Shown here piece after piece: positions 9,548-44,309 of a stretch of DNA of 64,000 nt. A program made the translations under genes and the position numbers. Position 1 is the first letter of the stretch. The number at the start of each line of letters is the position of its first letter. A model generated the notes under the pieces. The model saw only the letters and a program-made list of their open reading frames with translations, was not told where the DNA came from and ran no database searches. Origin of the DNA: Candidatus Micrarchaeota archaeon (GTDB taxonomy: Archaea > Micrarchaeota > Micrarchaeia > Micrarchaeales > Micrarchaeaceae); the NCBI GenBank assembly GCA_021816895.1, contig JAKAWW010000001.1:493067-557066 (forward strand), given 5' to 3'.

Positions 9548-9732
9548 GTTAGCACCCCCATATTACAAAACCATATGCTACTAAAAGCTAATAATTTTTC
9601 TATCAGATTGGCACATGCATAACATTCACGACAGTTGTGACCTCCTCCAACCCATAAATGGTGTGGGATTTCCCACTCACTTTGTTAACTTGCTGTTTTT
9701 TGGCTGCTGCAATCAGGATTTCCCTCTTTTGG

Positions 9733-11250: not shown

Positions 11251-11649
11251 ATGCATGGTGGTATGGTGCCAACAACGACAGTCAATACAAGCGTGGAGAA
11301 GTTGGGCAAGATATCCCAGGGGATAATGGACGAGAAAGTTTGGATGATATCAAAGAATTTTGACCCCAACATAATAAAGTACACAGAAGATGTGTTCGAG
11401 CAGGTAAATATGGCCCATTTAGCATGGCCGAGTGAAAATGCAGTAGATATGGTGAACATAGCCATAGAAAAGCTGTCCGCCCTTGTCAGCTTTCTGGACG
11501 ATAAATCCATAAAGGCGAGCAACAGCAAAGAAACCCGACAGCATATAGCCGAGCTTTACAGTTTAGCTGGCGACTTGGCATATATAATAGGGGCAGATGT
11601 TACAGGAGAAAATCTTAAATACAATGCAGACGCAGTACGGAATGAATAG
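11251..11649 (+). CDS. hypothetical protein
   Basis: 132-aa ORF following a 300-bp AT-rich spacer. No motif recognised. Confidence 0.4.
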   Translation: MHGGMVPTTTVNTSVEKLGKISQGIMDEKVWMISKNFDPNIIKYTEDVFEQVNMAHLAWPSENAVDMVNIAIEKLSALVSFLDDKSIKASNSKETRQHIAELYSLAGDLAYIIGADVTGENLKYNADAVRNE

Positions 11650-12014
11650 GCACTAGTACTGGATTGGTTACCCTGCTGGTATCCGGGGGCGTTCAGAGTA
11701 GGTATGCTCTTCGTGATGGTTAACATAGCAAATCTTGTCGGCGGCCCGCTACGCTTAAACCTGACCATAATACTTTATTCTCTGCTCGCTTTCGTGGCAC
11801 TATTCCCTGGTATTTATCTATCTATTGCAACACTTTCCTTAGCTATAAAAAAGGTGAGCTTGACAAGAGGGTCATGGACACTCTCAAGTTTGGCCTATGA
11901 GACCACATTGAGATTTTTTAATGTTGAGCTTTACAATGCTTGCCATGTATCCCAAAACCCGAAGAGGCAAAAAGCATAAATATCTGGATGACATCACATT
12001 AAGGGGGATATTAT

Positions 12015-12812
12015 ATGGCAACCAAGAGGGCAGATGCAGAGAAAGACAAAATGCAGCATGATGCGCAATCCAGTAGGGACGAGGCGCTGAAATCATGGCA
12101 GAACCTATATCCTGACCTGCTCAAGGCAGTCGGCACTGGCGACAGTATGGCGCTCGACAAAGCATACGAAGCCGTCAGGTTATGGAAGGAAAAGTACCAG
12201 AACACGGTTGGAGTTCTCAATGCGGAGGAAAAGAAGGGGATGAGAGATGAGCTGGACCTTGTGTTCGACAAGGCGAAGCTCCTGAGGAAGGCGGCCAGCA
12301 TAATGAAAGGTCCCTTCTCGGACGTGGGCAAGAACGCGGCAGCGGCCAAGAGTGCGCTCAACATGCTGCTCAGGGCACTTGACACGGAAAACAAGCTGGC
12401 GATCGATGCCGCAGCTACCAAGGCATTGCCTGTGTTAGGAAGATTCCTTGACTCGACACGCGTCAGACCACTTCTCACGGGCAAGATTAACCTGGACATG
12501 AGGGAGTTCCGACCTGATGAGTACAAGAATACGCTGGCCAGGGGCTTCCGTCCTATTGATATGTTGAGGTGGAACACGAACGGTGTAACATTCTGGAGAC
12601 AGGATGAAAACTGCTACGCCGTGACCAATTCTACACCTAAGTACAGCCTCACATGGGAACAACTCAACATTATGGCTGCCACCAAAATGACATGGTCCAT
12701 AGGCCCGTTCGTGATAAGGCATGAGGACGCTGTCAAGCTCCTGGGGCTGAAAGGTATAAGCTACACGAATATGGCGGATGCAAAAGTGGTGGAAAAGATC
12801 ATGAGTGCATGA
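12015..12812 (+). CDS. hypothetical protein (GC-rich ORFan)
   Basis: 265-aa ORF with balanced composition. The antisense ORF 12011-12577 is Ser/Leu/Ala-rich and was rejected. No motif recognised. Confidence 0.55.
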   Translation: MATKRADAEKDKMQHDAQSSRDEALKSWQNLYPDLLKAVGTGDSMALDKAYEAVRLWKEKYQNTVGVLNAEEKKGMRDELDLVFDKAKLLRKAASIMKGPFSDVGKNAAAAKSALNMLLRALDTENKLAIDAAATKALPVLGRFLDSTRVRPLLTGKINLDMREFRPDEYKNTLARGFRPIDMLRWNTNGVTFWRQDENCYAVTNSTPKYSLTWEQLNIMAATKMTWSIGPFVIRHEDAVKLLGLKGISYTNMADAKVVEKIMSA

Positions 12813-12913
12813 ACGCCGATTTCCAGGCAGAGTAGAGATCAAAGAAATGAGGCCAAAGCCGTACAAAGATAATTTATTATATTTAAAATGAAGAAAGTAT
12901 TAATGAGGCAGGA

Positions 12914-13507
12914 GTGCTTATGTTAGACGATTTGACATTTCTTGAAGAGGGAGAATTTACACGTATAAATGAAACCATAAGGAAAAAGGCTCTTGAGCTT
13001 ACAGCTGGTAAAAGTGATAAAGAAAAAGTTTTTGCAATATCCAACTTCCTTCTATCAAACTTACAGATGAAACCATTTGATTTAAGCATTTTCAGGAAGC
13101 GCACTGGCTCTGAAATTTTTGAATCGGGATTTTCTACAGGTTGCACGGATACTGCGCTTGTTTTTATAGTACTAAACAGGGCTTCAGGCATACCAACGAA
13201 ATATGCAGAGACATTGTGGGTAGATTGGCTCTCCGGGAAAATTCCAGCAAAACCTGTAGAGGGGCACATTTTTGTAGACGTAAAGCTTGATGGCAAATGG
13301 TTTGCATACGAGCCCTTGAGGGGCTTTACGCCAAATAATCAATACATCCTTATGGGCAGGCATTATAGCGAAGTTGGCAAAGGGCTCGATTTCTCAGCAA
13401 TTTACCTCAAAACGGAGAGTGGCTACAGCAGTAAGCCGATAAATTTGCAGAGCATAGAACAGCTTATGAAATTAAGAAAAAATACAGCTAAACTGCCGAT
13501 TTTATGA
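12914..13507 (+). CDS. transglutaminase-like cysteine protease domain protein
   Basis: GCTDTALVFIVLNRASGIPTKY supplies the catalytic Cys context, and EGHIFVDVKLDGKWFAYEP supplies the His and an acidic residue. Confidence 0.7.
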   Translation: MLMLDDLTFLEEGEFTRINETIRKKALELTAGKSDKEKVFAISNFLLSNLQMKPFDLSIFRKRTGSEIFESGFSTGCTDTALVFIVLNRASGIPTKYAETLWVDWLSGKIPAKPVEGHIFVDVKLDGKWFAYEPLRGFTPNNQYILMGRHYSEVGKGLDFSAIYLKTESGYSSKPINLQSIEQLMKLRKNTAKLPIL

Positions 13508-14253
13508 AGATAAAGAATGCATTTGACGAGGATATTGACCTTATTGTGGAAGGAAATAGTGAATCAGATACAACCATAATATTCGTTCATGGCTTCGGCA
13601 CAAACAAAGACGAAGGCGGTGGGCTTTTCATAGATATTGCCCATTCGCTTTCAGATCGCTTCAGGCTAGTGAGGTTCGATTTCACTGGTTATGGCATGAG
13701 TGAAGGTAGGCAAGAAGACACAAGTCTGGCCAAGGAAGCGTCAGATCTCAACAGTGTGCTAGGGTTCGCGCGTGAGAAATACGGTAATAGGATTTGGCTG
13801 ATTGGTATGTCTCTGGGTTGTTATGTGATAGCATTGCTGTCTCCCGATGGCATTTCAAAAACGGTCTTCATTTCTCCGCCAGATTCTAGTCAGGTCATCA
13901 CTGCAGAAAGGCTTGCCAAGAGAATCAAATCCCGTAATGGAGGAGTTGTGGATTATAATGGAATTAGCATCTACTCTAGATCAAGCGGCGAGACGCAAAA
14001 GATAGGCCCCGCTTTCTGGAAATCACTTGATGAATTTAATGCTGAAGCGGCAATTTCTGCATATTCGCGTAAAACAGACCTTATAACAATAATACCTGTG
14101 CATGACGAGATCTTTGAACGCAAGAATATGGATATTTACGATAAGGTATCTTCAAGTTGCATCAGGATGAAGGGCAATCATGCTTTCACTGTTAAGGAAG
14201 AAAGAGAAGCGTTAGTATCAAAGATCGCAGATATATTTAGTATGTTGGTTTGA
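13504..14253 (+). CDS. alpha/beta-fold hydrolase
   Basis: FVHGFGTNKDEGG and the nucleophile elbow GMSLGCY (GxSxG). ATGA overlap with the upstream gene. Confidence 0.75.
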   Translation: MKIKNAFDEDIDLIVEGNSESDTTIIFVHGFGTNKDEGGGLFIDIAHSLSDRFRLVRFDFTGYGMSEGRQEDTSLAKEASDLNSVLGFAREKYGNRIWLIGMSLGCYVIALLSPDGISKTVFISPPDSSQVITAERLAKRIKSRNGGVVDYNGISIYSRSSGETQKIGPAFWKSLDEFNAEAAISAYSRKTDLITIIPVHDEIFERKNMDIYDKVSSSCIRMKGNHAFTVKEEREALVSKIADIFSMLV

Positions 14254-14672
14254 TGAAAGTGCTTTTCATATGCAAGGCAAATGTCGGCAGGAGCCAGATG
14301 GCTGAAGCGATCTTCAACAGCTTGGCTAATAGTAAAGCAATATCTAGCAGTGCTGGAGTAGATCCAGGTAGCTATGAAGGTAAAAGGATAGTTGAGGCAG
14401 GCCCTAATGTAACTGCGTGTATGAAGGACATAGGGTTGGATGTATCCGATAAGGTATCAAAGAAGCTTACTGAATCTATGGCTAACGATGCAGATATTAT
14501 TGTGGCGATGGTAAGCAAGAACATGCTGCCTTCTTATCTGCAAAGCTCAGCTAAACTGATACTGTGGGATATAAAAGATCCTAAATTTATGGACTACACG
14601 GGGCATGTTGAAATAAGGAACCAGATATACGAGAAAGTCAAAGAGCTTGTAAAAGAGTTGAATTTGAATTAA
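14253..14672 (+). CDS. low-molecular-weight protein-tyrosine phosphatase family protein (copy 1)
   Basis: P-loop VLFICKANVGRSQMAE (C-x5-R-S) and a downstream DP motif (WDIKDP). The ATG overlaps the upstream TGA by 1 nt. Confidence 0.8.
   Translation: MKVLFICKANVGRSQMAEAIFNSLANSKAISSSAGVDPGSYEGKRIVEAGPNVTACMKDIGLDVSDKVSKKLTESMANDADIIVAMVSKNMLPSYLQSSAKLILWDIKDPKFMDYTGHVEIRNQIYEKVKELVKELNLN
14538..14629 (+). repeat. direct repeat A (inside the 3' end of LMW-PTP gene 1)
   Basis: Hand alignment gives 90 of 92 nt identical to 18460-18551. Confidence 0.9.
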
Positions 14673-14743
14673 CGCAAATGGTTTTAGGATTTATATTAAT
14701 ATATCAGAATATCTAATTAGGTAATATTTAACTATGTGGTTCA

Positions 14744-15193
14744 ATGAAGATTCTTTTTGTATGCATAGAAAATGTGAACAGAAGCCAAATAGCAGAAGCT
14801 ATATTCAATAAGCTGTCCAAAAAGAACACTGCACTGAGTGCTGGCGTGGCGCCAAAAACTGTTGGATTGCTCAAAAATGCGTATAACGAGAAAAGGGGAA
14901 CATATCCGCCGATAGTACCAATGAAAGAGCTTGGATATGATCTATCTAAAAATAAGATAAAAAAGCTGAACAAAAAGATGGCGGATGACGCCAACAAGAT
15001 AATCTTCATGTTCAAGAGAGAAAAACATGAGAATGAAATACCAAAATATGCGATTAGAAAGCGGGATGTTGAGTTCTGGGAGATACCAGGATTTAAGACC
15101 GGTCTCTCCTTTGGAGAATACTCCAGGATGGAAAAAATCAGGATAAAGCAGGTGGAGAGACGCGTAAGAGACCTGGTAGCAAGGATCGGTTAG
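14744..15193 (+). CDS. low-molecular-weight protein-tyrosine phosphatase family protein (copy 2)
   Basis: P-loop ILFVCIENVNRSQIAE (C-x5-R-S). Paralogous to the upstream gene. Confidence 0.75.
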   Translation: MKILFVCIENVNRSQIAEAIFNKLSKKNTALSAGVAPKTVGLLKNAYNEKRGTYPPIVPMKELGYDLSKNKIKKLNKKMADDANKIIFMFKREKHENEIPKYAIRKRDVEFWEIPGFKTGLSFGEYSRMEKIRIKQVERRVRDLVARIG

Positions 15194-15227
15194 AATGACA
15201 TCTGTCTGCTATTTGTAAACCATGAAG
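15165..15227 (+). repeat. direct repeat B (spans the stop codon of LMW-PTP gene 2)
   Basis: Hand alignment gives 61 of 63 nt identical to 17472-17534. Confidence 0.9.
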
Positions 15228-15228
15228 C

Positions 15229-15267
15229 CCAAAGAGCTTGTAAAAGAACGAATTTGAATTAGCGCAG
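15229..15267 (+). pseudogene. relic of the last ~13 codons of a PTP1-type gene
   Basis: ccaaagagcttgtaaaagaacgaatttgaattagcgca aligns to 14638-14676 (tcaaagagcttgtaaaagagttgaatttgaattaacgca), the end of gene 1, with a few mismatches. No ORF is attached. Confidence 0.6.
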
Positions 15268-15427
15268 ATAACAAAAAGTTGAATTTCAAGAGGGCGGTTT
15301 TATAACGAGCTTTTTAAGGAACTGAATTCCAGACTTAAAAGCTTTAAATAGAGAATTTTATGCGCATTTTAGTAAAGCGAACATATAAATATCTAAACAA
15401 AAAAGGTTTTATAAGGCGGGTGATCGA

Positions 15428-15946
15428 TTGGCAACGCATGAAATTGATAGATCTCAAAAAGCATTAGGCGCCTGTGGCGAAACAGATATAGACACAAACA
15501 CAAGATTATTGTTAGAAGGTATATTTGCAGAAAGCGTTCTTTATTTGACCGATAATAGCCCAGTGGTGAAATCAAAAGAGCGGATAGTAGATAAGCTAAC
15601 AACATTCGTAGAAAATATATCTGCTGGGATGGCCATAATAGACGATATGTCGGCAAAAGATAAGCCAATTAGTCTGCCCTCGAATTTTAGTGATGCGTTG
15701 CATGCAGTGTTCATTGCATACGATTACGTAATGAGAATTACACCAAAAGCAAGTTTTCTTCGCTCTAAGAAGTCAGACACTTCCCTCATGGAACGTTTTA
15801 TCGAGCAAATGAAGGTAGAGGTTGAATATTTGAAGAACGTGGAACTGGGAAAAGTTGAGCCTGACAAGGTAAAGACGGTTAGGGCTTTCTATGAGGAAAG
15901 ATTTAAGAAGGCCGTAAGCGAGTTACCAGTACCTAGGCTTGATTAA
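15428..15946 (+). CDS. hypothetical protein
   Basis: 172-aa ORF that needs a TTG start. No motif recognised. Confidence 0.35.
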   Translation: MATHEIDRSQKALGACGETDIDTNTRLLLEGIFAESVLYLTDNSPVVKSKERIVDKLTTFVENISAGMAIIDDMSAKDKPISLPSNFSDALHAVFIAYDYVMRITPKASFLRSKKSDTSLMERFIEQMKVEVEYLKNVELGKVEPDKVKTVRAFYEERFKKAVSELPVPRLD

Positions 15947-16039
15947 TTAAGCATCAACCGCATTTTCACCAAATAAACAGCCGTATAGCATTAACTCGAA
16001 CACAAAGAAAGTAATGAAATACTTGGGCATTGATCTTTA

Positions 16040-16070
16040 CCAATATTTTAGAATTTCTATGACGGTGTTA
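16040..16070 (+). repeat. relic resembling the HAD/deaminase gene junction
   Basis: ccaatattttagaatttctatgacggtgtta compared with 19301-19333 ccaaatatttttagaatttccatgaaagtgtta. Two 1-nt indels and three substitutions. Confidence 0.45.
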
Positions 16071-16165
16071 ACTTTATAAAAATCTCTCCCCTATTCTTAT
16101 GTCTAGGATTTCTAAAATTATGTTTGATACTAAATACAATAAATTCCGTTAATCTTAATACTGTT

Positions 16166-16702
16166 TTAGTCTCGCTTTCGTAGGATCTCGGAACCAAAGT
16201 ATTCTACTGCTATATCATATCCTAATATTGCCACTGCAGCATCCCCTCCTTTTTCTGTAAGCCATACCTCTGCGTTGCCATCAAATTTATCCATTGTTTC
16301 GCTGCCAAAGTCAACAAAGTGGTTTTGCTTGAGATAGGATAATGTATCTGCTATGATTGCTTCAAGTTGATATTTACTGAGCAGGGGGTCTTTTGCATAA
16401 TCTTTAAGTATCTCGAATATCTTGCTTGCCTTTATAGAAAAGCTTTCAATTTTATTGCCAATCGGCATGGAGCCCAATCCTTCACGTTCTAAAATCGGGG
16501 CTTCTATATATGGTGCCAAGAGCGCTGTCATAATGCTTATGGCCTTCTCCTTGCCCGCCTTGTTGAAATCATCAATTAAGTGCATGCCATGAATTGCTTT
16601 ATCTATTATCTTCTCTTTTGGGGGTAATGATATATCCCAGCTTTTTGTCTCATTGCCTGTGGGTTGCTTCTCTTTATACACAATATCACCAAGTTTAATC
16701 AA
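16166..16702 (-). CDS. hypothetical protein
   Basis: 178-aa ORF. No motif recognised. Confidence 0.45.
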   Translation of the reverse strand: MIKLGDIVYKEKQPTGNETKSWDISLPPKEKIIDKAIHGMHLIDDFNKAGKEKAISIMTALLAPYIEAPILEREGLGSMPIGNKIESFSIKASKIFEILKDYAKDPLLSKYQLEAIIADTLSYLKQNHFVDFGSETMDKFDGNAEVWLTEKGGDAAVAILGYDIAVEYFGSEILRKRD

Positions 16703-16852
16703 TTAAGTAAGGATTTTCAAATATTTAATTGTTATCCCTTTCAGACCGCGTCCAATAATTCCGGTATTATAATAAACCTGAGGATTTATAAAAATCCCCT
16801 AATATTACTGAAGTATATTATGTTTTAATGATACCATTTAAAAGTTGATGAA

Positions 16853-17308
16853 ATGGAGATAATAAGAGCGAACAGAGTAAACAAGTACATTACGGATGCA
16901 CTGAGAATAGCACACAGCCTCAAGGAATGGTTCAACGAGAACGGGGTGAAAAGCATGGAGGCTGATCTTTTCTTTGATAACTTAATAGTAGCAGTGGAAG
17001 GAAATGAGACCATCGGCTTTGCCTGCTACAGTTCTTATGATGGGATAATGCAATTGATTTGGCTAGCTGTCGAAAGAGGCTATCAAGGTAGGGGTGTAGG
17101 TACAAAGCTTCTCAATTGGGTGGAAGATGAGGCAAGAAGCCACGGTATTGCGCTTATACAAGTGGAGACACTCCCTGACGAGCACAGCTATGAGCCCTAC
17201 AAGCTTACAAGGAAGTTCTATTACAACAATGGATTTGTCAGGGTAGCTTATAAGAAAGCGAGGCTTGAGGGATGGGACGACCAAGTAGTCCTGGAAAAGA
17301 GACTATAG
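16853..17308 (+). CDS. GNAT-family N-acetyltransferase
   Basis: LAVERGYQGRGVGTKLLNWVEDEARSHG is the acetyl-CoA-binding motif A (Q/R-x-x-G-x-G/A). Confidence 0.8.
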   Translation: MEIIRANRVNKYITDALRIAHSLKEWFNENGVKSMEADLFFDNLIVAVEGNETIGFACYSSYDGIMQLIWLAVERGYQGRGVGTKLLNWVEDEARSHGIALIQVETLPDEHSYEPYKLTRKFYYNNGFVRVAYKKARLEGWDDQVVLEKRL

Positions 17309-17471
17309 GAGGCATTGGCGTACCATGTCGGATCGCGGCCGTAAAACGCAATCAAAAAGTAAAGACGCGCAAAAGAAAGGGCAATAATACCAGTGCGCTT
17401 CAATGACTATTCTGACATTTTGTGGTATATTTGTAACAAAGAGAAGACAGCCTTCACTGCGGCTACCTCCA

Positions 17472-17534
17472 TAAGAGACCTGGTAGCAAGGATCTGTTAG
17501 AATGACATCTGTCCGCTATTTGTAAACCATGAAG
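17472..17534 (+). repeat. direct repeat B' (orphan copy of the LMW-PTP gene 2 terminus)
   Basis: 61 of 63 nt identical to 15165-15227 and not attached to an ORF. It is followed at 17540-17554 by gaattaacacagata, which matches 15256-15270. Confidence 0.9.
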
Positions 17535-17628
17535 ATCATGAATTAACACAGATAGTTTTAGAAGCTTACATGAGTATGTCAGATGAGCGATAGTAATCTA
17601 TAAATATAATAAAAACAGAAATCATATT

Positions 17629-18426
17629 GTGACATTCATGGAGGCTAATAAAGATACTGAAAAATCAAAATTAACTGAGCGACAAATGCTTGATTTTATT
17701 GCAAATACTTCAAATATAGAGGGGATTCGCAAACTTGGCATTGGCGATTTTCCAGCTAATGAAATAATACACAATTCAAAGGCGGAATCTGGAACCATAA
17801 ACCTCAATAAAGTATATATAGAACCTTTCTACAGGATGTGCACGAGCGATAGAGAACTGGGGCTTGCCGTAGGGTTCACGTTCTGGCACTCTATCGTAAC
17901 AGATAGAATAAGGACAACGACACTCATTTCCCTATTATTGGACGGAGTAAAGCTTTCAAATGAAGCACGTGAGTATTTTAACGATATATTGGCAAAAGCA
18001 ATCAATGTATCAAACGAGCGTGAGATACTTGGAAAAGCTCCCGAAAACATTAAAGAAGAAGTGGGCAACGCGTTCAACGCCATAAAAAATAAGTATCGAT
18101 TGCAATTGGAAATTGCCACCCAAGCCGAAGTGATTAAGGGCATCAACAGGAAAGACACAGTAAAGAACATAGTTAATGACCTTGCTGTGACAACTGTAGC
18201 TTCCAATCCTAAAGAAAAGCCTACAAGTGAGGCAGTAAGTAGGAATTTTAATGAATACTATGCTGCAGAAAAGTGGAAAGACAAGGAATTTATGGCCGTA
18301 GTGGGTAGGCTGAATCCTATAGCTATTGAGGTTGTTGAGGATGTATCAAGCGCAGCCAATTATTACAACGATATTATTAATGCAGCAGTGGAGCGTGCAA
18401 GGCAGATAGAGGGAAAATATCTATGA
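17629..18426 (+). CDS. hypothetical protein
   Basis: 265-aa ORF (GTG at 17629 or ATG at 17638). No motif recognised. Confidence 0.45.
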   Translation: MTFMEANKDTEKSKLTERQMLDFIANTSNIEGIRKLGIGDFPANEIIHNSKAESGTINLNKVYIEPFYRMCTSDRELGLAVGFTFWHSIVTDRIRTTTLISLLLDGVKLSNEAREYFNDILAKAINVSNEREILGKAPENIKEEVGNAFNAIKNKYRLQLEIATQAEVIKGINRKDTVKNIVNDLAVTTVASNPKEKPTSEAVSRNFNEYYAAEKWKDKEFMAVVGRLNPIAIEVVEDVSSAANYYNDIINAAVERARQIEGKYL

Positions 18427-18459
18427 GCGATTGGTCGACTGTGTGAAGGTTTTATTTAC

Positions 18460-18551
18460 CTGCAAAGCTCAGCTAAACTGATACTGTGGGATATAAAAGA
18501 TCCTAAATTTATAGACTACACGGGGCATTTTGAAATAAGGAACCAGATATA
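18460..18551 (+). repeat. direct repeat A' (orphan copy of the LMW-PTP gene 1 3' region)
   Basis: 90 of 92 nt identical to 14538-14629. Lies in an intergenic spacer with no upstream PTP reading frame. Confidence 0.9.
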
Positions 18552-18595
18552 TTGATAATGTTAAAATAATTAGAATCCACGGAATAGATGAATGA

Positions 18596-19300
18596 ATGAA
18601 ATGTCTTGTAATTTTTGACTTGGATGAAGTGCTCGTGAAGAAAGGTAGTTACAATGCGCTAGGCAACCGGATACCTTTTGCAGTAAACAAAGTATTTGGA
18701 ACTGACGTGAGCATGGAGATGTTTCCTGATCTTTCCACTAAAAACACTAGAGGACTGACTGATACATTCATTTTGCTGAAGTTAGCAGAGCATGCCTGCG
18801 TAAAAAGAAGCATTGCCATTAATCACTTAAAGGAATTGTACAAAGCCGAGGCAGAGTATTCAAAGCGCCATATGAGAGAGCACAAAGCTTCGCTATATAA
18901 AGGCGTGAAGCATCTTCTTAAGAGATTGACTAAAGAGGGGTATGTTGTGTGCCTAGCAACAGGTAATATAGAGCCCGTAGCAAGGCTAAAGCTTAGGAAG
19001 TACGGCATTAATGGATTCTTCAAGTTCGGAGGTTTCGGCACACGCCTCAAGCGAGCAGGCATAATAAGGGATGCAATCAAAAATGCAGAGAAGAGGTATG
19101 GTAAGATAAGCAAGAGGAATATTTTTTACCTAGGCGATTCTCCACGAGGTGTCGATGGTGGAAAAGATGTGGGGGTTAATACGATAGCTGTAGCCACTGG
19201 AAAGTACACAATGAAAGAACTTGCTAAAGAAAAACCAGATTACCTGCTGAAGGACCTTTCAGATACAAAAAGGGTAATGAAAATACCTGGGCAATGTTGA
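18596..19300 (+). CDS. HAD-superfamily hydrolase
   Basis: Motif I VIFDLDEVLV (DxD). ATGN and GDSPRGVDGG fit motifs II-IV. Confidence 0.75.
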   Translation: MKCLVIFDLDEVLVKKGSYNALGNRIPFAVNKVFGTDVSMEMFPDLSTKNTRGLTDTFILLKLAEHACVKRSIAINHLKELYKAEAEYSKRHMREHKASLYKGVKHLLKRLTKEGYVVCLATGNIEPVARLKLRKYGINGFFKFGGFGTRLKRAGIIRDAIKNAEKRYGKISKRNIFYLGDSPRGVDGGKDVGVNTIAVATGKYTMKELAKEKPDYLLKDLSDTKRVMKIPGQC

Positions 19301-19321
19301 CCAAATATTTTTAGAATTTCC

Positions 19322-19798
19322 ATGAAAGTGTTAGATGATCAAATGGCTTACGAAAAAATTATGCACTTTGTAATATACAAGGCACTAAGAAGCGTAAAGC
19401 AAAACAAGAAAGCAAAGTTTGCCGCGTGTGTCGTAAAAGGATCAAGAATCATATCTCTGGGCTACAATACAACATCCATCGATCATGACATTGTTGCGCA
19501 TGCAGAGATAAATGCAATAAGGAGCGCATCAAAGAAACTCGGGTTGGAACACCATGGAAGCCTACTGGGCTTTACGCTATACTCTACATGCGAACCTTGC
19601 AGCATGTGCTTTGCCGCCAGCAAGTATGCCGGCATTAAGAAAATAGTCTATGGGATAAGCCTGAATGACCTCTCAAAACTCGACGCAGGGAAAAAGCTAA
19701 GGCCGCGTAAACAACACAGCTACATGAAGGATGAGATAGAGATGGTTGGAGGGGTTCTGAGGCAGGAATGCTGTGATCTTTTCAGCAGGTTTCATTAG
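19322..19798 (+). CDS. CMP/dCMP-type zinc deaminase (TadA / guanine deaminase-like)
   Basis: HAEINAI and TCEPCSMC form the H-A-E ... P-C-x-x-C zinc-binding signature. Confidence 0.8.
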   Translation: MKVLDDQMAYEKIMHFVIYKALRSVKQNKKAKFAACVVKGSRIISLGYNTTSIDHDIVAHAEINAIRSASKKLGLEHHGSLLGFTLYSTCEPCSMCFAASKYAGIKKIVYGISLNDLSKLDAGKKLRPRKQHSYMKDEIEMVGGVLRQECCDLFSRFH

Positions 19799-20234
19799 AA
19801 TGAAAAAATACCAACACTGTGCATATTAGAATAGAGTTTCATCATAATGAAATGAAAATACGCTTTTCAAAAAGCATTCATTCCGAATTTATGGAAAACA
19901 AGGCTTGCTGGTTAAGCAAGCTGTATTGCGTGCCAAAAGAGCAATGGAAAATTGGTTTTTCCTCGAGAGGCGTTTTTTGGCTCATAATTATGGAATAATG
20001 ATGAATGCTATCCATTTTATTGAAAATTTCTAACGTTTATAGCACTCTCCCATTTTTTCCTTGATATGCACTCATTTAAAGCAGTTCGACGACAAAGATT
20101 TGCACGCATTTGAGCACTATTGGAAGATCTCAAGGCAGGCCGAAAAAATGCCCATAGCAAAGAAAGCACACAAGGAAAGCGAAATTAAAAGAATACTCAA
20201 AATATATTAGATTTACTAATATTATCTAAGAACA

Positions 20235-20696
20235 TTACTTTCTTATGCCCACACCATGCGGCTTTCTGCTTGCAATCTGCTTGTTCACGCTCTCTACTAA
20301 ATACACTGTGAACTTCACTACTTCATTTTCCATCGATAACTCTTCGCTATATGAACCATTAGAAATAGACGCGAATTTGATTGTTATCTTTCCTCCATCT
20401 CTAGAGAAACGTGTAGATCCCCATAGCTCTTTCCAAAAACCATCATTATTGCCATTTGTTTTTTCTACAATTTCTTTCCCAATGTTCTCAATTTCTTTGT
20501 CACTCAAAGTTGTTTCTTCGCCACTCGATCCCTTCAGTACAATAACTACCGCTACCTTATAGGGAACATCCACGTCCTGCTCAGATCGGAAAAAACTGAA
20601 TCTTATCTGGCCATGTGCATATTTTGATTTAATTTCAGTTTTCACTTCTTCTGCTTCTAAAGCATTTTTTGCACTTGCATACATTTTCTCACCCAT
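20235..20696 (-). CDS. hypothetical protein
   Basis: 153-aa ORF. No motif recognised. Confidence 0.45.
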   Translation of the reverse strand: MGEKMYASAKNALEAEEVKTEIKSKYAHGQIRFSFFRSEQDVDVPYKVAVVIVLKGSSGEETTLSDKEIENIGKEIVEKTNGNNDGFWKELWGSTRFSRDGGKITIKFASISNGSYSEELSMENEVVKFTVYLVESVNKQIASRKPHGVGIRK

Positions 20697-20839
20697 ATAA
20701 ATTACACCGTTCCTTATATTTAAATGCTGTTAATTTTTGCATTTCTTTAATGCTGTTTGAACTAATTTAAATAATACTAAAAATATGTTAGATTAACTAA
20801 TTATTTTTTAGTATTGTCGTTCACAAATAAAAATCTTGA

Positions 20840-21340
20840 TTACTCTTCACTGCTTGGAGTATTGTAGTATTCTACAAGCAGCTTTTCAGCGATCTTGAAT
20901 AAGACATTTGCCCAAATCTCCCCTGGATATTTGTATTTAAGATTTTTTCTCCATTCATTATCGAGTATGCTATCACTTGAATCTCCCTCGAAAGCTTCTC
21001 CAAAGCACCATAATACCTCATACTTGTCGAGAACACCTAAAAGCTTTTGGTTTTCAGGATTTACGTATGTATACTCTTCTTTTTTTGGCAACCGTTGTTT
21101 TATGATACTAACGAGCTCTTTTTCGTAATTCATCTTGTCACTATTAATTTCCTCTATGCGCACAGCCAGCGCATTTATAAAACTAGAAGCTATCTCTCGA
21201 TGGTTCTTTAAATAACCTATTATGAATTTTTCAGCCTCTTTTTCCTTATCTAAACGATAGTCTCTAACTTCTCTTACAATGCTCGCTATATCATTGGATT
21301 GATTTCTTACCTCATCCTTATCTACTCTGATTTCGGGCAT
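20840..21340 (-). CDS. hypothetical protein
   Basis: 166-aa ORF. No motif recognised. Confidence 0.45.
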   Translation of the reverse strand: MPEIRVDKDEVRNQSNDIASIVREVRDYRLDKEKEAEKFIIGYLKNHREIASSFINALAVRIEEINSDKMNYEKELVSIIKQRLPKKEEYTYVNPENQKLLGVLDKYEVLWCFGEAFEGDSSDSILDNEWRKNLKYKYPGEIWANVLFKIAEKLLVEYYNTPSSEE

Positions 21341-21454
21341 ACAGTCACCTTAGAGTAAGCATGTGAGGAATGAGATATATAAACATATTGAATTTTTGTA
21401 ATTTGTTAAGAAGTTTTTGAAGTTTTTGAAAAGCGAACAAAAATTTTGACTTAC

Positions 21455-21668
21455 AGAATCCATAGCGAAAGCCCACCTCTTTCAAAGGTGGGATGAATGC
21501 GAAACACATAAATTATTAATTGTAGCTAAATATATAATATGATAGTGAAGTAAATGAAATTAACTCAGGTTGTAAAGGTAGAAGGCGATTATGAAATGAT
21601 GCCAACGGTTGAAACGAACCTTGAAACCGTGAGGAACCCCACAGAATTTATTCGTGGGAAGATGTCAG
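21455..21668 (+). mobile_element. MITE, an internally deleted derivative of the tnpB unit of the IS200/IS605 element at 42948-44309
   Basis: The left ~143 nt align to 42948-43091, including the LE hairpin and the first 15 tnpB codons. The right ~72 nt align to 44238-44309, including the RE hairpin. The junction is at about 21597. Hairpins lie at 21472-21492 and 21638-21658. Confidence 0.8.
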
Positions 21669-21916
21669 TCCCTTAGCCAACCTTTGCGAAAGTCGTTTGA
21701 TGCGTATTCGGAAAACACTACGGCTTCTTTAAGCATGGCTTTGAATATGTCTAGATTGACAAATTTATTTAAAAACGCTTGCTCCTTCTTGATGAATACG
21801 TCTGTGCTGCTTTTATACTTATCTAGCGATAAAAGTGCGTTTATGTCATCAGCATGCTTCTTCTTGTTGTAGCCGTGATCATTTGCATAAGCTAAAACCT
21901 TAAGGATTACTAACAT
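21665..21916 (-). CDS. hypothetical protein (possibly truncated by the MITE)
   Basis: 83-aa ORF. Its stop codon (complement of 21665-21667) lies inside the last 4 nt of the MITE. Confidence 0.35.
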   Translation of the reverse strand: MLVILKVLAYANDHGYNKKKHADDINALLSLDKYKSSTDVFIKKEQAFLNKFVNLDIFKAMLKEAVVFSEYASNDFRKGWLRD

Positions 21917-42289: not shown

Positions 42290-42319
42290 TGCAAGCTTTT
42301 TATTCGTAGGGCAAGAATA

Positions 42320-42339
42320 CCACGACTTTTAAGTCGTGG
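42320..42339 (+). other. LE-like hairpin 1 (upstream of tnpA)
   Basis: ccacgac-ttttaa-gtcgtgg followed by atgaat. The same stem consensus and trailing atgaat occur at 42966 and 21472. Confidence 0.65.
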
Positions 42340-42450
42340 ATGAATTGCACACTGCGATACGATAAATACTACTTCTTTTCTTGTGATATTCCGTTAATAG
42401 CAGCGTGCTGCAAATTTGCGCGGCACCGCGACTGCCAGAAACGTGAGCGT

Positions 42451-42873
42451 ATGAATGGCATAGCGAATGCAAAATATAAAGAACCATCTGCCAACGATGT
42501 TGGCCATCAGTACAACTTCCAACACCTTGTATTGGTTACGAAATACAGGTACAAAATGTTCAAGAACTCGAAAACTGTCGAGATAATACGGGATGCGCTT
42601 TATGACGCCGCAGAAAGACACGGTATGGCAATAAAAGAGATGTCTTTTGGCGACGACTATGCGCATGTCCATATGGAAGTCAGCATACCAAATACAATGT
42701 CAGTTTCGTATGCGGTGCAGTTGTTGAAGGGATACTCGTCATACAAAGTGTTCAAAGAAATGCCTCGACACATATTGCGCTATTTCCAAGGGCATTTTTG
42801 GACTGCCGGCTACAGCAATGGAAGTGTTGGTCCGAGAGATGAAAATACGCTACAGAACCACATCCGAAGGTAG
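42451..42873 (+). CDS. tnpA: IS200/IS605 TnpA (Y1 HUH transposase), catalytic Tyr apparently replaced
   Basis: YNFQHLVLVTKYRYKMF and the HUH motif AHVHMEV are present. The C-terminus reads TLQNHIRR where family members have x-x-Q-x-Y-I-x-x-Q. Confidence 0.8.
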   Translation: MNGIANAKYKEPSANDVGHQYNFQHLVLVTKYRYKMFKNSKTVEIIRDALYDAAERHGMAIKEMSFGDDYAHVHMEVSIPNTMSVSYAVQLLKGYSSYKVFKEMPRHILRYFQGHFWTAGYSNGSVGPRDENTLQNHIRR

Positions 42874-42965
42874 GATATCTCAGGACAACTGCATCTTGCC
42901 GTTTAACCAAAGTGATACTGCGACCTTTAGGCCGCAGAGAAGGTCATAGAATCTATAGCAGAAAG

Positions 42966-42986
42966 CCCACGATTTTCAATCGTGGG
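42966..42986 (+). other. LE-like hairpin 2 (upstream of tnpB, and the left end of the unit copied in the MITE)
   Basis: cccacga-ttttcaa-tcgtggg followed by atgaat. The MITE copy reads cccacct-ctttcaa-aggtggg, where two stem positions differ and both base pairs are kept. Confidence 0.75.
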
Positions 42987-43047
42987 ATGAATGCGAAACA
43001 CATAAATTATTAATTGTAGCTAAATATATAATATGATAGTGAAGTAA

Positions 43048-44265
43048 ATGAAATTAACTCAGATTGTAAAGGTAGAAGGAGATTATGAAATATTGGACAA
43101 TCTTGCAAAGATAACCAACGGCTTGTATAATTCTGCATTGTATGAAAGCAGCCAAAGATACAAGCGAGAGCAAAAGTTCTACTTCTACTACGATCTCTGT
43201 AATATACTAAAGAACAACACTCTCTATACCCTACTGCCTTCCCAAACCGCTCAGGCGGTATTGCAAAAAGTGGAAGGTGCAATAAAGTCATTCCTGAAAC
43301 TTCGCAGAAACAACGCAAATGCAGCATATCCAAAATACCACAAGAAGAACACAACATGGGTAATACCATTCAAATCGCAGCAGATAAAAATTGACGGAAA
43401 CATTTTGACAGTTCCAATGTCCATGAAGTATAGAGAAGAAAAGGGGCTGTCGCATATTGATCTCAAAATTCCCAATATGCGATATGACGGAATTGTGAAA
43501 TACATTGAATTGTATAAAACAGACAGATGGTATGCATCAATAGTGATTGACGTAAAAGAACAACAGGAATCTGTGCCAAAAGGCAATCTCTACATCGATC
43601 TCGGAGTTAGGAACCTCGCAACAGTATTCGATGGCAAAAAGGTTGCGATTTATTCAGGAGGAAAAACCAGTTCTACAAATAGGTATAGAAACAAAAAGAA
43701 TGCAGAACAACAGGCCATTCTTTCAACAATAGGGAAAAAGACAAGTAAAGAGAAGAGGCGAATTGCAAGAAAGGCGTTGCATCAATTGAAGCAGCAGCTG
43801 CACTCAATGACAAAGTCTATAGTACAAAAAGCAAAGGCCGAAAACAAAGGCATAGTTGTAGGGAATCTGTCACATGTAAGAGACAGCGCCAATTATAATG
43901 ACAATGCCAACCAGAAGATACATCAATGGCAGTTTGCTGAGATAACAAAACAACTCTTCTACAAGGCAAAGGAGTTTGGGATAAAGATAACGAAAATATC
44001 AGAGGAAGATACTTCAAAGACATGCGCACTGTGCGGCCAAGAAGCAAACGGAAGAGTGCACAGGGGATTGTATAGATGTAAACTATACGGCAAACAGTTC
44101 AACGCGGATGCGAATGGTGCGTTGAACATAATGAAAAGGTATCTCCAAATCCCATTGCAACAAGGCAGTGGGATAGGAGTAGTGGGTGTCCTGGCACACC
44201 CTGCGGTATACCGTTGGAATGAACACAGATGGTGTAATGATGCCAACGGTCGAAACGAACCTTGA
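43048..44265 (+). CDS. tnpB: TnpB (IS605 OrfB family RNA-guided nuclease homologue)
   Basis: RuvC-I YIDLGVRNLATV, zinc finger TSKTCALCG...HRGLYRC, and RuvC-III FNADANGALNI. The expected RuvC-II strand reads GIVVGNLSHV. Confidence 0.9.
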   Translation: MKLTQIVKVEGDYEILDNLAKITNGLYNSALYESSQRYKREQKFYFYYDLCNILKNNTLYTLLPSQTAQAVLQKVEGAIKSFLKLRRNNANAAYPKYHKKNTTWVIPFKSQQIKIDGNILTVPMSMKYREEKGLSHIDLKIPNMRYDGIVKYIELYKTDRWYASIVIDVKEQQESVPKGNLYIDLGVRNLATVFDGKKVAIYSGGKTSSTNRYRNKKNAEQQAILSTIGKKTSKEKRRIARKALHQLKQQLHSMTKSIVQKAKAENKGIVVGNLSHVRDSANYNDNANQKIHQWQFAEITKQLFYKAKEFGIKITKISEEDTSKTCALCGQEANGRVHRGLYRCKLYGKQFNADANGALNIMKRYLQIPLQQGSGIGVVGVLAHPAVYRWNEHRWCNDANGRNEP

Positions 44266-44309
44266 AACCGTGAGGAACCCCACAGAATTTATTCGTGGGA
44301 GGATGTCAG
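44140..44309 (+). ncRNA. candidate omega/right-end RNA scaffold of TnpB (extent is a guess)
   Basis: By analogy with characterised TnpB systems, the guide RNA scaffold overlaps the 3' end of tnpB and ends at the RE boundary. The RE hairpin 44279-44299 and the last 72 nt are conserved in the MITE. Confidence 0.35.

Follow-up and report, generated by a model that had tools for sequence, protein, structure and literature searches.

A probable terminal-only remnant of a tnpB-only IS200/IS605 element in a Micrarchaeota genome, with the stop codon of a convergent reading frame in its tip

Classical MITEs carry terminal inverted repeats, are usually bordered by target duplications and occur in multiple copies. 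Single-strand 'peel and paste' transposition, typical of the IS200/IS605 family, has its mechanistic paradigm in IS608 (ISHp608) of Helicobacter pylori, and recognition by the Y1 transposase TnpA on single-stranded DNA is the established reason for selection on hairpin stems. The guides of IS608 reportedly pair with the cleavage motifs TTAC and TCAA, and TCAA is said to be its right cleavage motif, both statements being ascribed to Barabas et al. 2008. The guide tetranucleotides of IS608 are AAAG on the left (G_L) and GAAT on the right (G_R) (PMC3597680). [quoted passage not shown] Full and deleted forms occur there at the same position in different strains, and where the short form stands alone at a site, in-place deletion and mobilisation are indistinguishable (PMC3119063, Dyall-Smith et al. 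2011). Geobacillus stearothermophilus harbours PATE-like elements beside tnpB-only elements, mobilised in trans by TnpA, and PATEs 'often encode omega-RNAs' (PMC10055086, Meers et al. 2023).

How does the short element at 21455-21668 of the 64-kb window, as we call the whole stretch of DNA analysed, compare with these systems? It consists of the first 143 nt and the last 71 nt of a 1362-bp tnpB-only IS200/IS605 element, and a full-length copy of this kind lies in the same window next to a tnpA-only unit:

42297..42947, + strand: IS200-like tnpA-only unit abutting the full-length tnpB element, its end set by stand-alone tnpA units elsewhere
42451-42873, + strand: tnpA, with the catalytic Tyr changed to His and a premature stop
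42948..44309, + strand: full-length 1362-bp tnpB-only insertion sequence, ends taken from 69 related loci
43048-44265, + strand: tnpB, 405 aa, Pfam OrfB_IS605 and Cas12f1-like_TNB
~44134-44309, + strand: candidate guide-RNA scaffold, from the consensus of family members

The unit at 42948-44309 codes for a single protein, which we identify as TnpB because of its OrfB_IS605 and Cas12f1-like TNB domains, and since the boundaries of similarity are exact in all related loci, the 1362 bp constitute a discrete mobile element. We consider it probable that the 214-bp element is a terminal-only remnant of an IS1341-type (tnpB-only) member of this family. The exact TnpB and its neighbouring genes are present in the metagenome-assembled genome (MAG) GCA_021844905.1, and its relatives found by protein search in species-representative genomes come nearly all from Candidatus Micrarchaeota or Micrarchaeia MAGs. 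A 24-nt left-end pattern gave no match in the contigs of the representative genomes; a DNA pattern of the right end recovered 46 further metagenome contigs with family right ends. The IS1341-type family of Micrarchaeota (DPANN) is delimited to the base, with its TTAC target, its hairpins and a candidate scaffold of ~176 nt.

Alignment bears out the composition given in the preliminary description, a fusion of the left and right ends of the tnpB unit at a short microhomology. The left part, 21455-21597, aligns to 42948-43091 (131-nt ungapped core, 95% identity) and the right part, 21598-21668, to 44239-44309 (82-nt block, 94% identity). The two blocks meet at an AAT common to both breakpoints, which lies within an imperfect 11-nt repeat (GATTATGAAAT vs GATGGTGTAAT); the junction reads GAAAT/GATGCC (25-nt junction sequence GGCGATTATGAAATGATGCCAACGG), and the missing interior amounts to 1147 bp, equivalent to 43092-44238. 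The left spacer has one A fewer than that of the 42948 copy (AGC-GAAAG vs AGCAGAAAG). Too short for a transposase, the element codes for nothing beyond a 40-aa fusion micro-ORF, which is annotated as a gene in several assemblies and is a by-product of the deletion. At least 8 independent assemblies, made from different samples, contain the 214-bp sequence at 100% identity, and several assemblies break at it. Its parts are the following:

21451..21454, + strand: TTAC target and left cleavage motif, directly 5' of the element
21455..21597, + strand: left-end part, 143 nt, aligned to 42948-43091 and to the full-length copies L080, L101 and L103
inside 21455..21597, + strand: 17-nt left spacer with a private 1-nt deletion, from alignment
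21468-21471, + strand: AAAG at the position of the IS608 left guide, inside the left-end part
21472..21492, + strand: left subterminal hairpin CCCACCT/CTTTCAA/AGGTGGG on the top strand, presumed TnpA binding site (pattern, fold, covariation)
inside the left-end part, + strand: AT-rich presumed tnpB promoter region and the first 14 tnpB codons, ATG at 21554
21554..21676, + strand: 40-aa fusion micro-ORF, tnpB codons 1-14 continued in another frame across the right end and into the flank
21595..21597, + strand: AAT microhomology at the deletion junction, from alignment
21598..21668, + strand: right-end part, 71 nt, tip GAAGATGTCAG; of the scaffold it keeps the terminal hairpin region and just the 3' strands of helices 1 and 5
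21634-21637, + strand: GAAC preceding the right hairpin, where IS608 has its right guide
21638..21658, + strand: right subterminal hairpin CCCAC(A)GAAT/TT/ATTCGTGGG with a bulged A (pattern, fold, helix 7 covariation)
21665..21668, + strand: right cleavage motif TCAG, complement CTGA
21665..21916, - strand: convergent 83-aa orphan ORF with its stop codon in the element tip; no Pfam match

The exact ends and the target motif, which the preliminary description had left to be defined, emerge from the family comparison. Homology stops precisely at the bases equivalent to 42948 and 44309 in the 69 related loci, and we take the ends as real element ends for this reason. TTAC stands upstream of 17 of the 18 distinct left-end variants, so that the TTAC pointed out earlier as the left flank at 21451-21454 is the target motif of the family. 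The right tip is GATGTCAG, as in the 214-bp element, or GATGTCAA in 19 of 20 right ends compared, the remaining one (L024) being GGGCGCCAG. Left and right flanks are otherwise unrelated across the family loci, so that no target duplication is made. The outermost bases of the 214-bp element, AGAATCC... and ...GATGTCAG, are not inverted repeats; it carries instead an imperfect palindrome close to either end, both of them on the + strand.

In these respects the element follows IS608 closely. TTAC is the target 5' of the left end in both, AAAG lies directly 5' of the left hairpin, the right motif starts with TCA, and there are two imperfect hairpins on one strand, one of them with a bulged base. 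Directly 5' of the right hairpin stands GAAC here and GAAT in IS608. By analogy, the presumed pairings AAAG:TTAC and GAAC:TCAG would fit the IS608 rule, the last pair of GAAT/TCAA being changed from A:T to G:C. Unlike IS608, which combines tnpA and tnpB in one unit, the present family has its tnpB-only and tnpA-only units as separate elements. A two-gene element of IS605/IS608 type with an internal left end was considered for the 42948 copy and rejected, as homology to stand-alone tnpA units, which lack tnpB, stops exactly at 42947 (...TCAT).

Lacking both inverted terminal repeats and a target duplication, the 214-bp element fits the PATE ('terminal-only IS605') class, which it also resembles in its near-terminal palindromes, in being too short for a transposase and in the deletion of an IS1341-type core between short repeats. 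It differs from the Haloquadratum elements in that its host is a DPANN archaeon (Micrarchaeota) and not a haloarchaeon, in that the deletion used a 3-nt (imperfect 11-nt) microhomology inside tnpB rather than the hairpin repeats, and in being single-copy. With MITEs it shares its shortness, its non-coding character and its relation to an autonomous or semi-autonomous insertion sequence, whereas terminal inverted repeats, a target duplication and multiple copies are absent. It is thus a further example of the known PATE-like remnants, now in a DPANN archaeon, and not a MITE in the strict sense; we advise annotating it as a terminal-only IS200/IS605 remnant (PATE-like).

The hairpins deserve separate treatment, because the preliminary description had read covariation in the left stem as a sign of functional selection on the short element. 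Both sequences are as described there: CCCACCT-CTTTCAA-AGGTGGG in the 214-bp element stands against CCCACGA-TTTTCAA-TCGTGGG in the 42948 copy, and both changed stem pairs are still Watson-Crick. Right-end hairpins of the form CCCAC(A)GAAT..ATTCGTGGG lie near each right end, and the motif CCCAC-N11-GTGGGA has 10 matches on both strands vs 0.21 expected. Single-strand DNA folding recovers all four hairpins, the left one at 21472-21492 with -7.0 kcal/mol. Among 14 distinct left-end variants, 92% of the cells of the 7-bp left stem are paired and four of the seven pairs show double changes; none of 500 shuffles reaches the observed covariation score, and register-shifted controls fall to 32-58% paired. 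The right-end hairpins vary with compensation too (GAAT..ATTC, GAC..GTC, CTATC..GATAG). The hairpin stems are clearly under selection. The CCCACCT..AGGTGGG variant, however, is already carried by full-length copies in sister strains, and the compensated pairs therefore mark two full-length subfamilies and did not originate in the 214-bp element. What stands of the earlier reading is selection on the stem. The difference is inherited variation between full-length subfamilies, maintained by selection for a stem to which the transposase presumably binds, and should not be read as element-specific evolution.

Where, then, did the 214-bp element come from? Sister alleles were sought by looking up in public assemblies the two genes that flank it. 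Over the comparable bases, the full-length copy L103 differs from it at 1 position (left part only), L080 by 2 substitutions and an indel and L101 at 5 positions, whereas the window copy at 42948 shows 10 substitutions and an indel. The left junction (...GACTTAC / AGAATCCATAGC-GAAAG) is identical in L103 and L101, where the element is full-length and shares with the short one the private 1-nt spacer deletion and the left hairpin. In L080 it is the right junction, that with the 83-aa gene, which is identical; the element there is full-length too and ends in the same rare tip GGGAAGATGTCAG. Because these same-site full-length copies differ at only 1-5 positions and already have the compensated hairpin, the tnpB unit 21 kb away, proposed earlier as the parent, is by sequence comparison a cousin and not the parent.

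The sister alleles are not simple. No full-length element between both flanks of the 214-bp site was present in the assemblies examined: L101 and L102 have a right flank other than that at the site, and the right flank of L103 is different or unknown. L101 is a mosaic, its positions 35-558 being identical to the window copy at 42948, and on its left L080 is flanked by the TTAC of window positions 11931-11934, so that 9.5 kb are missing. Judged from these sequences, family copies evidently recombine and exchange flanks between strains, and the alleles L101, L103 and L080 could themselves be recombinants of a resident short element with full-length copies elsewhere. Several observations concern this neighbourhood. 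In L080 (ERZ27237019, 4100-5252) the full-length element joins TTAC 11931-11934, a site unoccupied in the window, straight to window position 21669; deletion, an excised circle and misassembly could not be told apart as the cause of the missing 9.5 kb. The segment concerned, 11935-21454, has lower GC and a strongly positive GC skew, and contains internal repeats (14534-14629/18456-18551 and 15165-15227/17472-17534). L080 and L102 fit poorly as reciprocal products of one crossover, since the right flank of L102 is unlike the window from 11935 onward and the samples are multi-strain. At the 83-aa gene junction of L082 (2749-2927), the last 38-45 nt match the right tip of the 214-bp element and the upstream part encodes a different TnpB C-terminus (...HANANASFNIAKR...), so that L082 represents a recombinant or else another member of the family inserted at this TTAC.

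We propose that a full-length copy of about 1.36 kb, of the CCCACCT..AGGTGGG subfamily, would have inserted 3' of TTAC 21451-21454, a target that overlapped the G-TAA with which the convergent 83-aa ORF ended on the opposite strand. In our reconstruction the insertion would have exchanged the stop of this ORF (TAA to TGA, with E to D at the last residue) and kept its length. A later deletion of 1147 bp between short imperfect repeats sharing AAT, most likely in place, would then have taken nearly all of tnpB and the 5' two-thirds of the guide-RNA scaffold.

The preliminary description had called the element a MITE, which implies a multi-copy, mobilised form, and had left the number of copies to a wider search. 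The junction of the 214-bp element was found nowhere else in the 64-kb window, which is the part of the ~0.94-Mb contig covered by the direct DNA search, nor at any of the 69 family loci from other genomes and metagenomes, nor in viral contigs. A collection of 15 billion protein sequences contains only one cluster with the micro-ORF junction, in a search that sees those copies in which the micro-ORF was called as a gene. The junction pattern thus occurs only in loci of the element's own genomic site, and the label MITE does not hold. Since the derivative exists at this one site only, in-place deletion is a likelier origin than transposition as a MITE, and we favour it with reasonable confidence over arrival as a short element; we see no sign that the 214-bp remnant was ever moved.

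The family has, on the other hand, produced a spectrum of decay products (48, 214, ~298, 356 and 420 bp), which bears on the principal alternative. Beyond the 214-bp form these are the following, each with a junction of its own:

L045: short derivative with a different junction, 420 bp
L016: short derivative with a different junction, 356 bp
L030 2517-2815, L046 1060-1358, L053 1440-1737, L055 178-474 and L040 (reverse) ~11572-11863: derivatives of ~298 bp
L063 ~2627-2678: 48-nt mini element with TTAC, left spacer, single hairpin and right tip AGGATGTCAG

The hairpin-fused mini element of L063 is the equivalent of the 52-bp terminal-only PATEs of Haloquadratum. The ~298-bp protein-less family occurs at no fewer than three (at least 3) different TTAC sites and retains ~110 nt of the left end together with the complete ~176-nt right-end scaffold, which makes it a good candidate for a PATE that carries only the guide RNA and depends on TnpB supplied in trans.

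Could the 214-bp form have travelled as well? As a true MITE or PATE it would have arisen by deletion elsewhere and been moved in trans by TnpA to its present TTAC, the full-length alleles at the site being formed later by recombination. We regard this as an unlikely history, although one with several points in its favour. Its ends, hairpins and cleavage motifs are all intact, the family does spawn mobile short forms of the ~298-bp type, intact tnpA homologues are present in the same communities, and the mosaic L101 and the copies L080 and L102, which resemble flank-swapped recombinants with swapped right-tip variants, indicate the kind of recombination that it demands. Yet neither a donor nor a sibling with the 214-bp junction appears in the window, the family loci, the viral contigs or the protein collection, and the full-length L103 shares the same left flank and left end, private deletion included, through position 131. 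A very short crossover window would therefore be needed, unless the partner copy had the same variants. Under deletion in place, too, a Y1 transposase of the IS608 type could in principle still mobilise the remnant in trans, by peel-and-paste, if the analogy holds: the two subterminal hairpins, the two cleavage motifs and the tetranucleotides at both guide positions, all that such an enzyme requires, have been retained. The left spacer is 1 nt short.

The only tnpA in the 64-kb window, 42451-42873, would hardly provide such a transposase. Alignment to ISDra2 TnpA places His where the catalytic Tyr is expected; all nine close homologues (9/9) have LQNYIRRQDISGQ... (LQNYIRRQ) at the position where the window reads LQNHIRR-stop. 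A CAG-to-TAG change removes the last 11 residues, and the frame downstream still reads DISGQLHLAV. From its sequence this tnpA is judged inactive. Homologues that are intact and 74-89% identical occur in related MAGs as well as in the samples themselves. The tnpA unit ends with ...GGTCAT at 42947 and the tnpB element begins at the next base; this tandem abutment is why the left flank of the 42948 copy is TCAT and not TTAC.

A function for the remnant in its present place is far less probable still. Under domestication, the promoter and right end would have been kept for a short RNA, either antisense to the 3' end of the 83-aa gene or a minimal guide, or as a terminator of that gene. Whether any guide could be made depends on the scaffold. 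When the last ~176 nt are folded to a consensus from 14 diverse family members, seven helices are predicted with 97% of cells paired, and 14 of the 43 pairs show double (compensated) changes, a level reached by 0 of 500 shuffles and with shifted registers falling to 39-50% paired, where the structure was predicted on the same alignment as it was tested on and part of it overlaps coding sequence. In location and form this modelled region matches the scaffold of a TnpB guide RNA (omega-RNA) and is a candidate for it. The covariation support comes mainly from a divergent subfamily (L025, L028, L033, L038, L041, L042, L049, L054, L056, L067, L068 and L070), in which only the last ~54 nt are shared at the DNA level and the upstream helices are kept through compensated changes. 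As in Geobacillus, the scaffold shares sequence with the 3' end of tnpB and with the right end, and protein-less short forms share the ends of the full element; the difference is that the 214-bp element has only 71 of the ~176 scaffold nt, whereas the ~298-bp family retains all.

With ~105 scaffold nt lost, the 214-bp element has no 5' strands for helices 1 and 5 and nothing of helices 2, 3, 4 and 6; the terminal hairpin region alone survives. Having just these last 71 nt, the element cannot make a complete guide RNA. All six scaffold helices upstream of the terminal hairpin region being broken or gone thus speaks against domestication, as do the sister strains with other alleles at the site and an Rfam scan of the 214-bp element that returned a chance match only (SCARNA7, E = 0.24). 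The AT-rich region upstream of the tnpB ATG is indeed intact and directed into the convergent gene, and the element is fixed and invariant in at least two strain lineages, but this invariance is uninformative because the strain flanks differ by only ~0.3% as well.

A local segmental duplication with different boundaries, or an artefact of assembly, put together from parts of the 42948-44309 copy, for which one might cite the two copies of each end in the window and the assemblies that break at the element, can be dismissed in view of the 10 differences and indel from that copy, the identical sequence in independent assemblies and boundaries that coincide to the base with the family ends and the TTAC target.

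What did the insertion do to the neighbouring gene? As noted in the preliminary description, the last 4 nt of the element contain the stop of the ORF at 21665-21916: its TGA, read from 21916 to 21665, is the complement of 21665-21667, and 21668 provides the third base of the last sense codon. The suggestion that the insertion may have truncated this gene is contradicted by reconstruction, as is an extension. When the element is removed and the flanks are rejoined, the minus strand reads ...AGG GAG TAA (...LRE-stop, 83 aa), the original TAA lying in GTAA, the complement of TTAC 21451-21454. With the element present the frame ends ...LRD-TGA, and E to D at the last residue is the only change, at unaltered length. 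The length was kept because the family makes no target duplication and the right tip reads C-TGA. A search for an empty-site allele through orthologues of the 83-aa ORF found none, the ORF being an orphan with two alleles that both end in LRD, and the pre-insertion sequence is therefore a reconstruction and not an observed one. The ORF should not be annotated as truncated.

The arrangement is not confined to this site. Convergent frames of at least 100 codons run into the element at 12 of 56 distinct right-flank sites; ten of them lie in the frame closed by the tip TGA, with one in each of the other two (binomial p = 5e-4 vs one third), and at a threshold of 60 codons the tip TGA closes 18 of 27 convergent frames. 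In the same sequences, TTAC sites that coincide with the TAA stop of such a frame make up a baseline of 38/2525 (1.5%), over which stop-codon sites are enriched ~12-fold (p ~1e-8). The right tip thus supplies the stop of a convergent gene in 10-18 of the 56 family sites (18-32%). The affected genes are genuine ones and include those for a class II Asp/Asn-type tRNA synthetase, a PNP_UDP_1 phosphorylase, a HAD hydrolase, a sulfatase, a family 4 glycosyltransferase and EF-1beta.

The likely cause is twofold: the two cleavage motifs resemble each other mechanistically (T-T/C-A-N), and insertions into compact genomes are subject to purifying selection. An insertion placed exactly at the TAA of a convergent gene leaves no seam, as the right tip restores a stop, and this helps to explain the persistence of these elements in very compact genomes. 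It is conceivable, though we would not presume it, that this is a general property of TTAC-targeting IS200/IS605 elements, in which both motifs would be stop codons in the same register of the complementary strand, TTAC giving G-TAA and TCAG or TCAA giving C-TGA or T-TGA. If so, the 3' ends of genes, essential ones included, would be safe havens for such elements, and the guide segment, that is, the flank past the right end, would be antisense to the last codons of the convergent gene. A limited literature search returned no link of TTAC-targeting IS200/IS605 elements to stop codons, and this regularity is the only part of the present observations that may be new.

Two further traces of the family may be mentioned. 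A scan of the window for additional solo ends, defined by a hairpin plus tip, returned only the right end of the tnpA unit. A hairpin-like CCAACCCATAAATGGTGTGGGA at 9646-9668 has one mismatch to the family hairpin motif and is followed on the minus strand by AGGAGGTCAC, which resembles the right-end tip; it may be a decayed solo end or a product of chance. In L013 (343-375) a right end ...GATGTCAG is succeeded directly by a left-end-like GGAATGATTAGCAGAAAACC..., a tandem arrangement like the abutment of the tnpA and tnpB units in the window.
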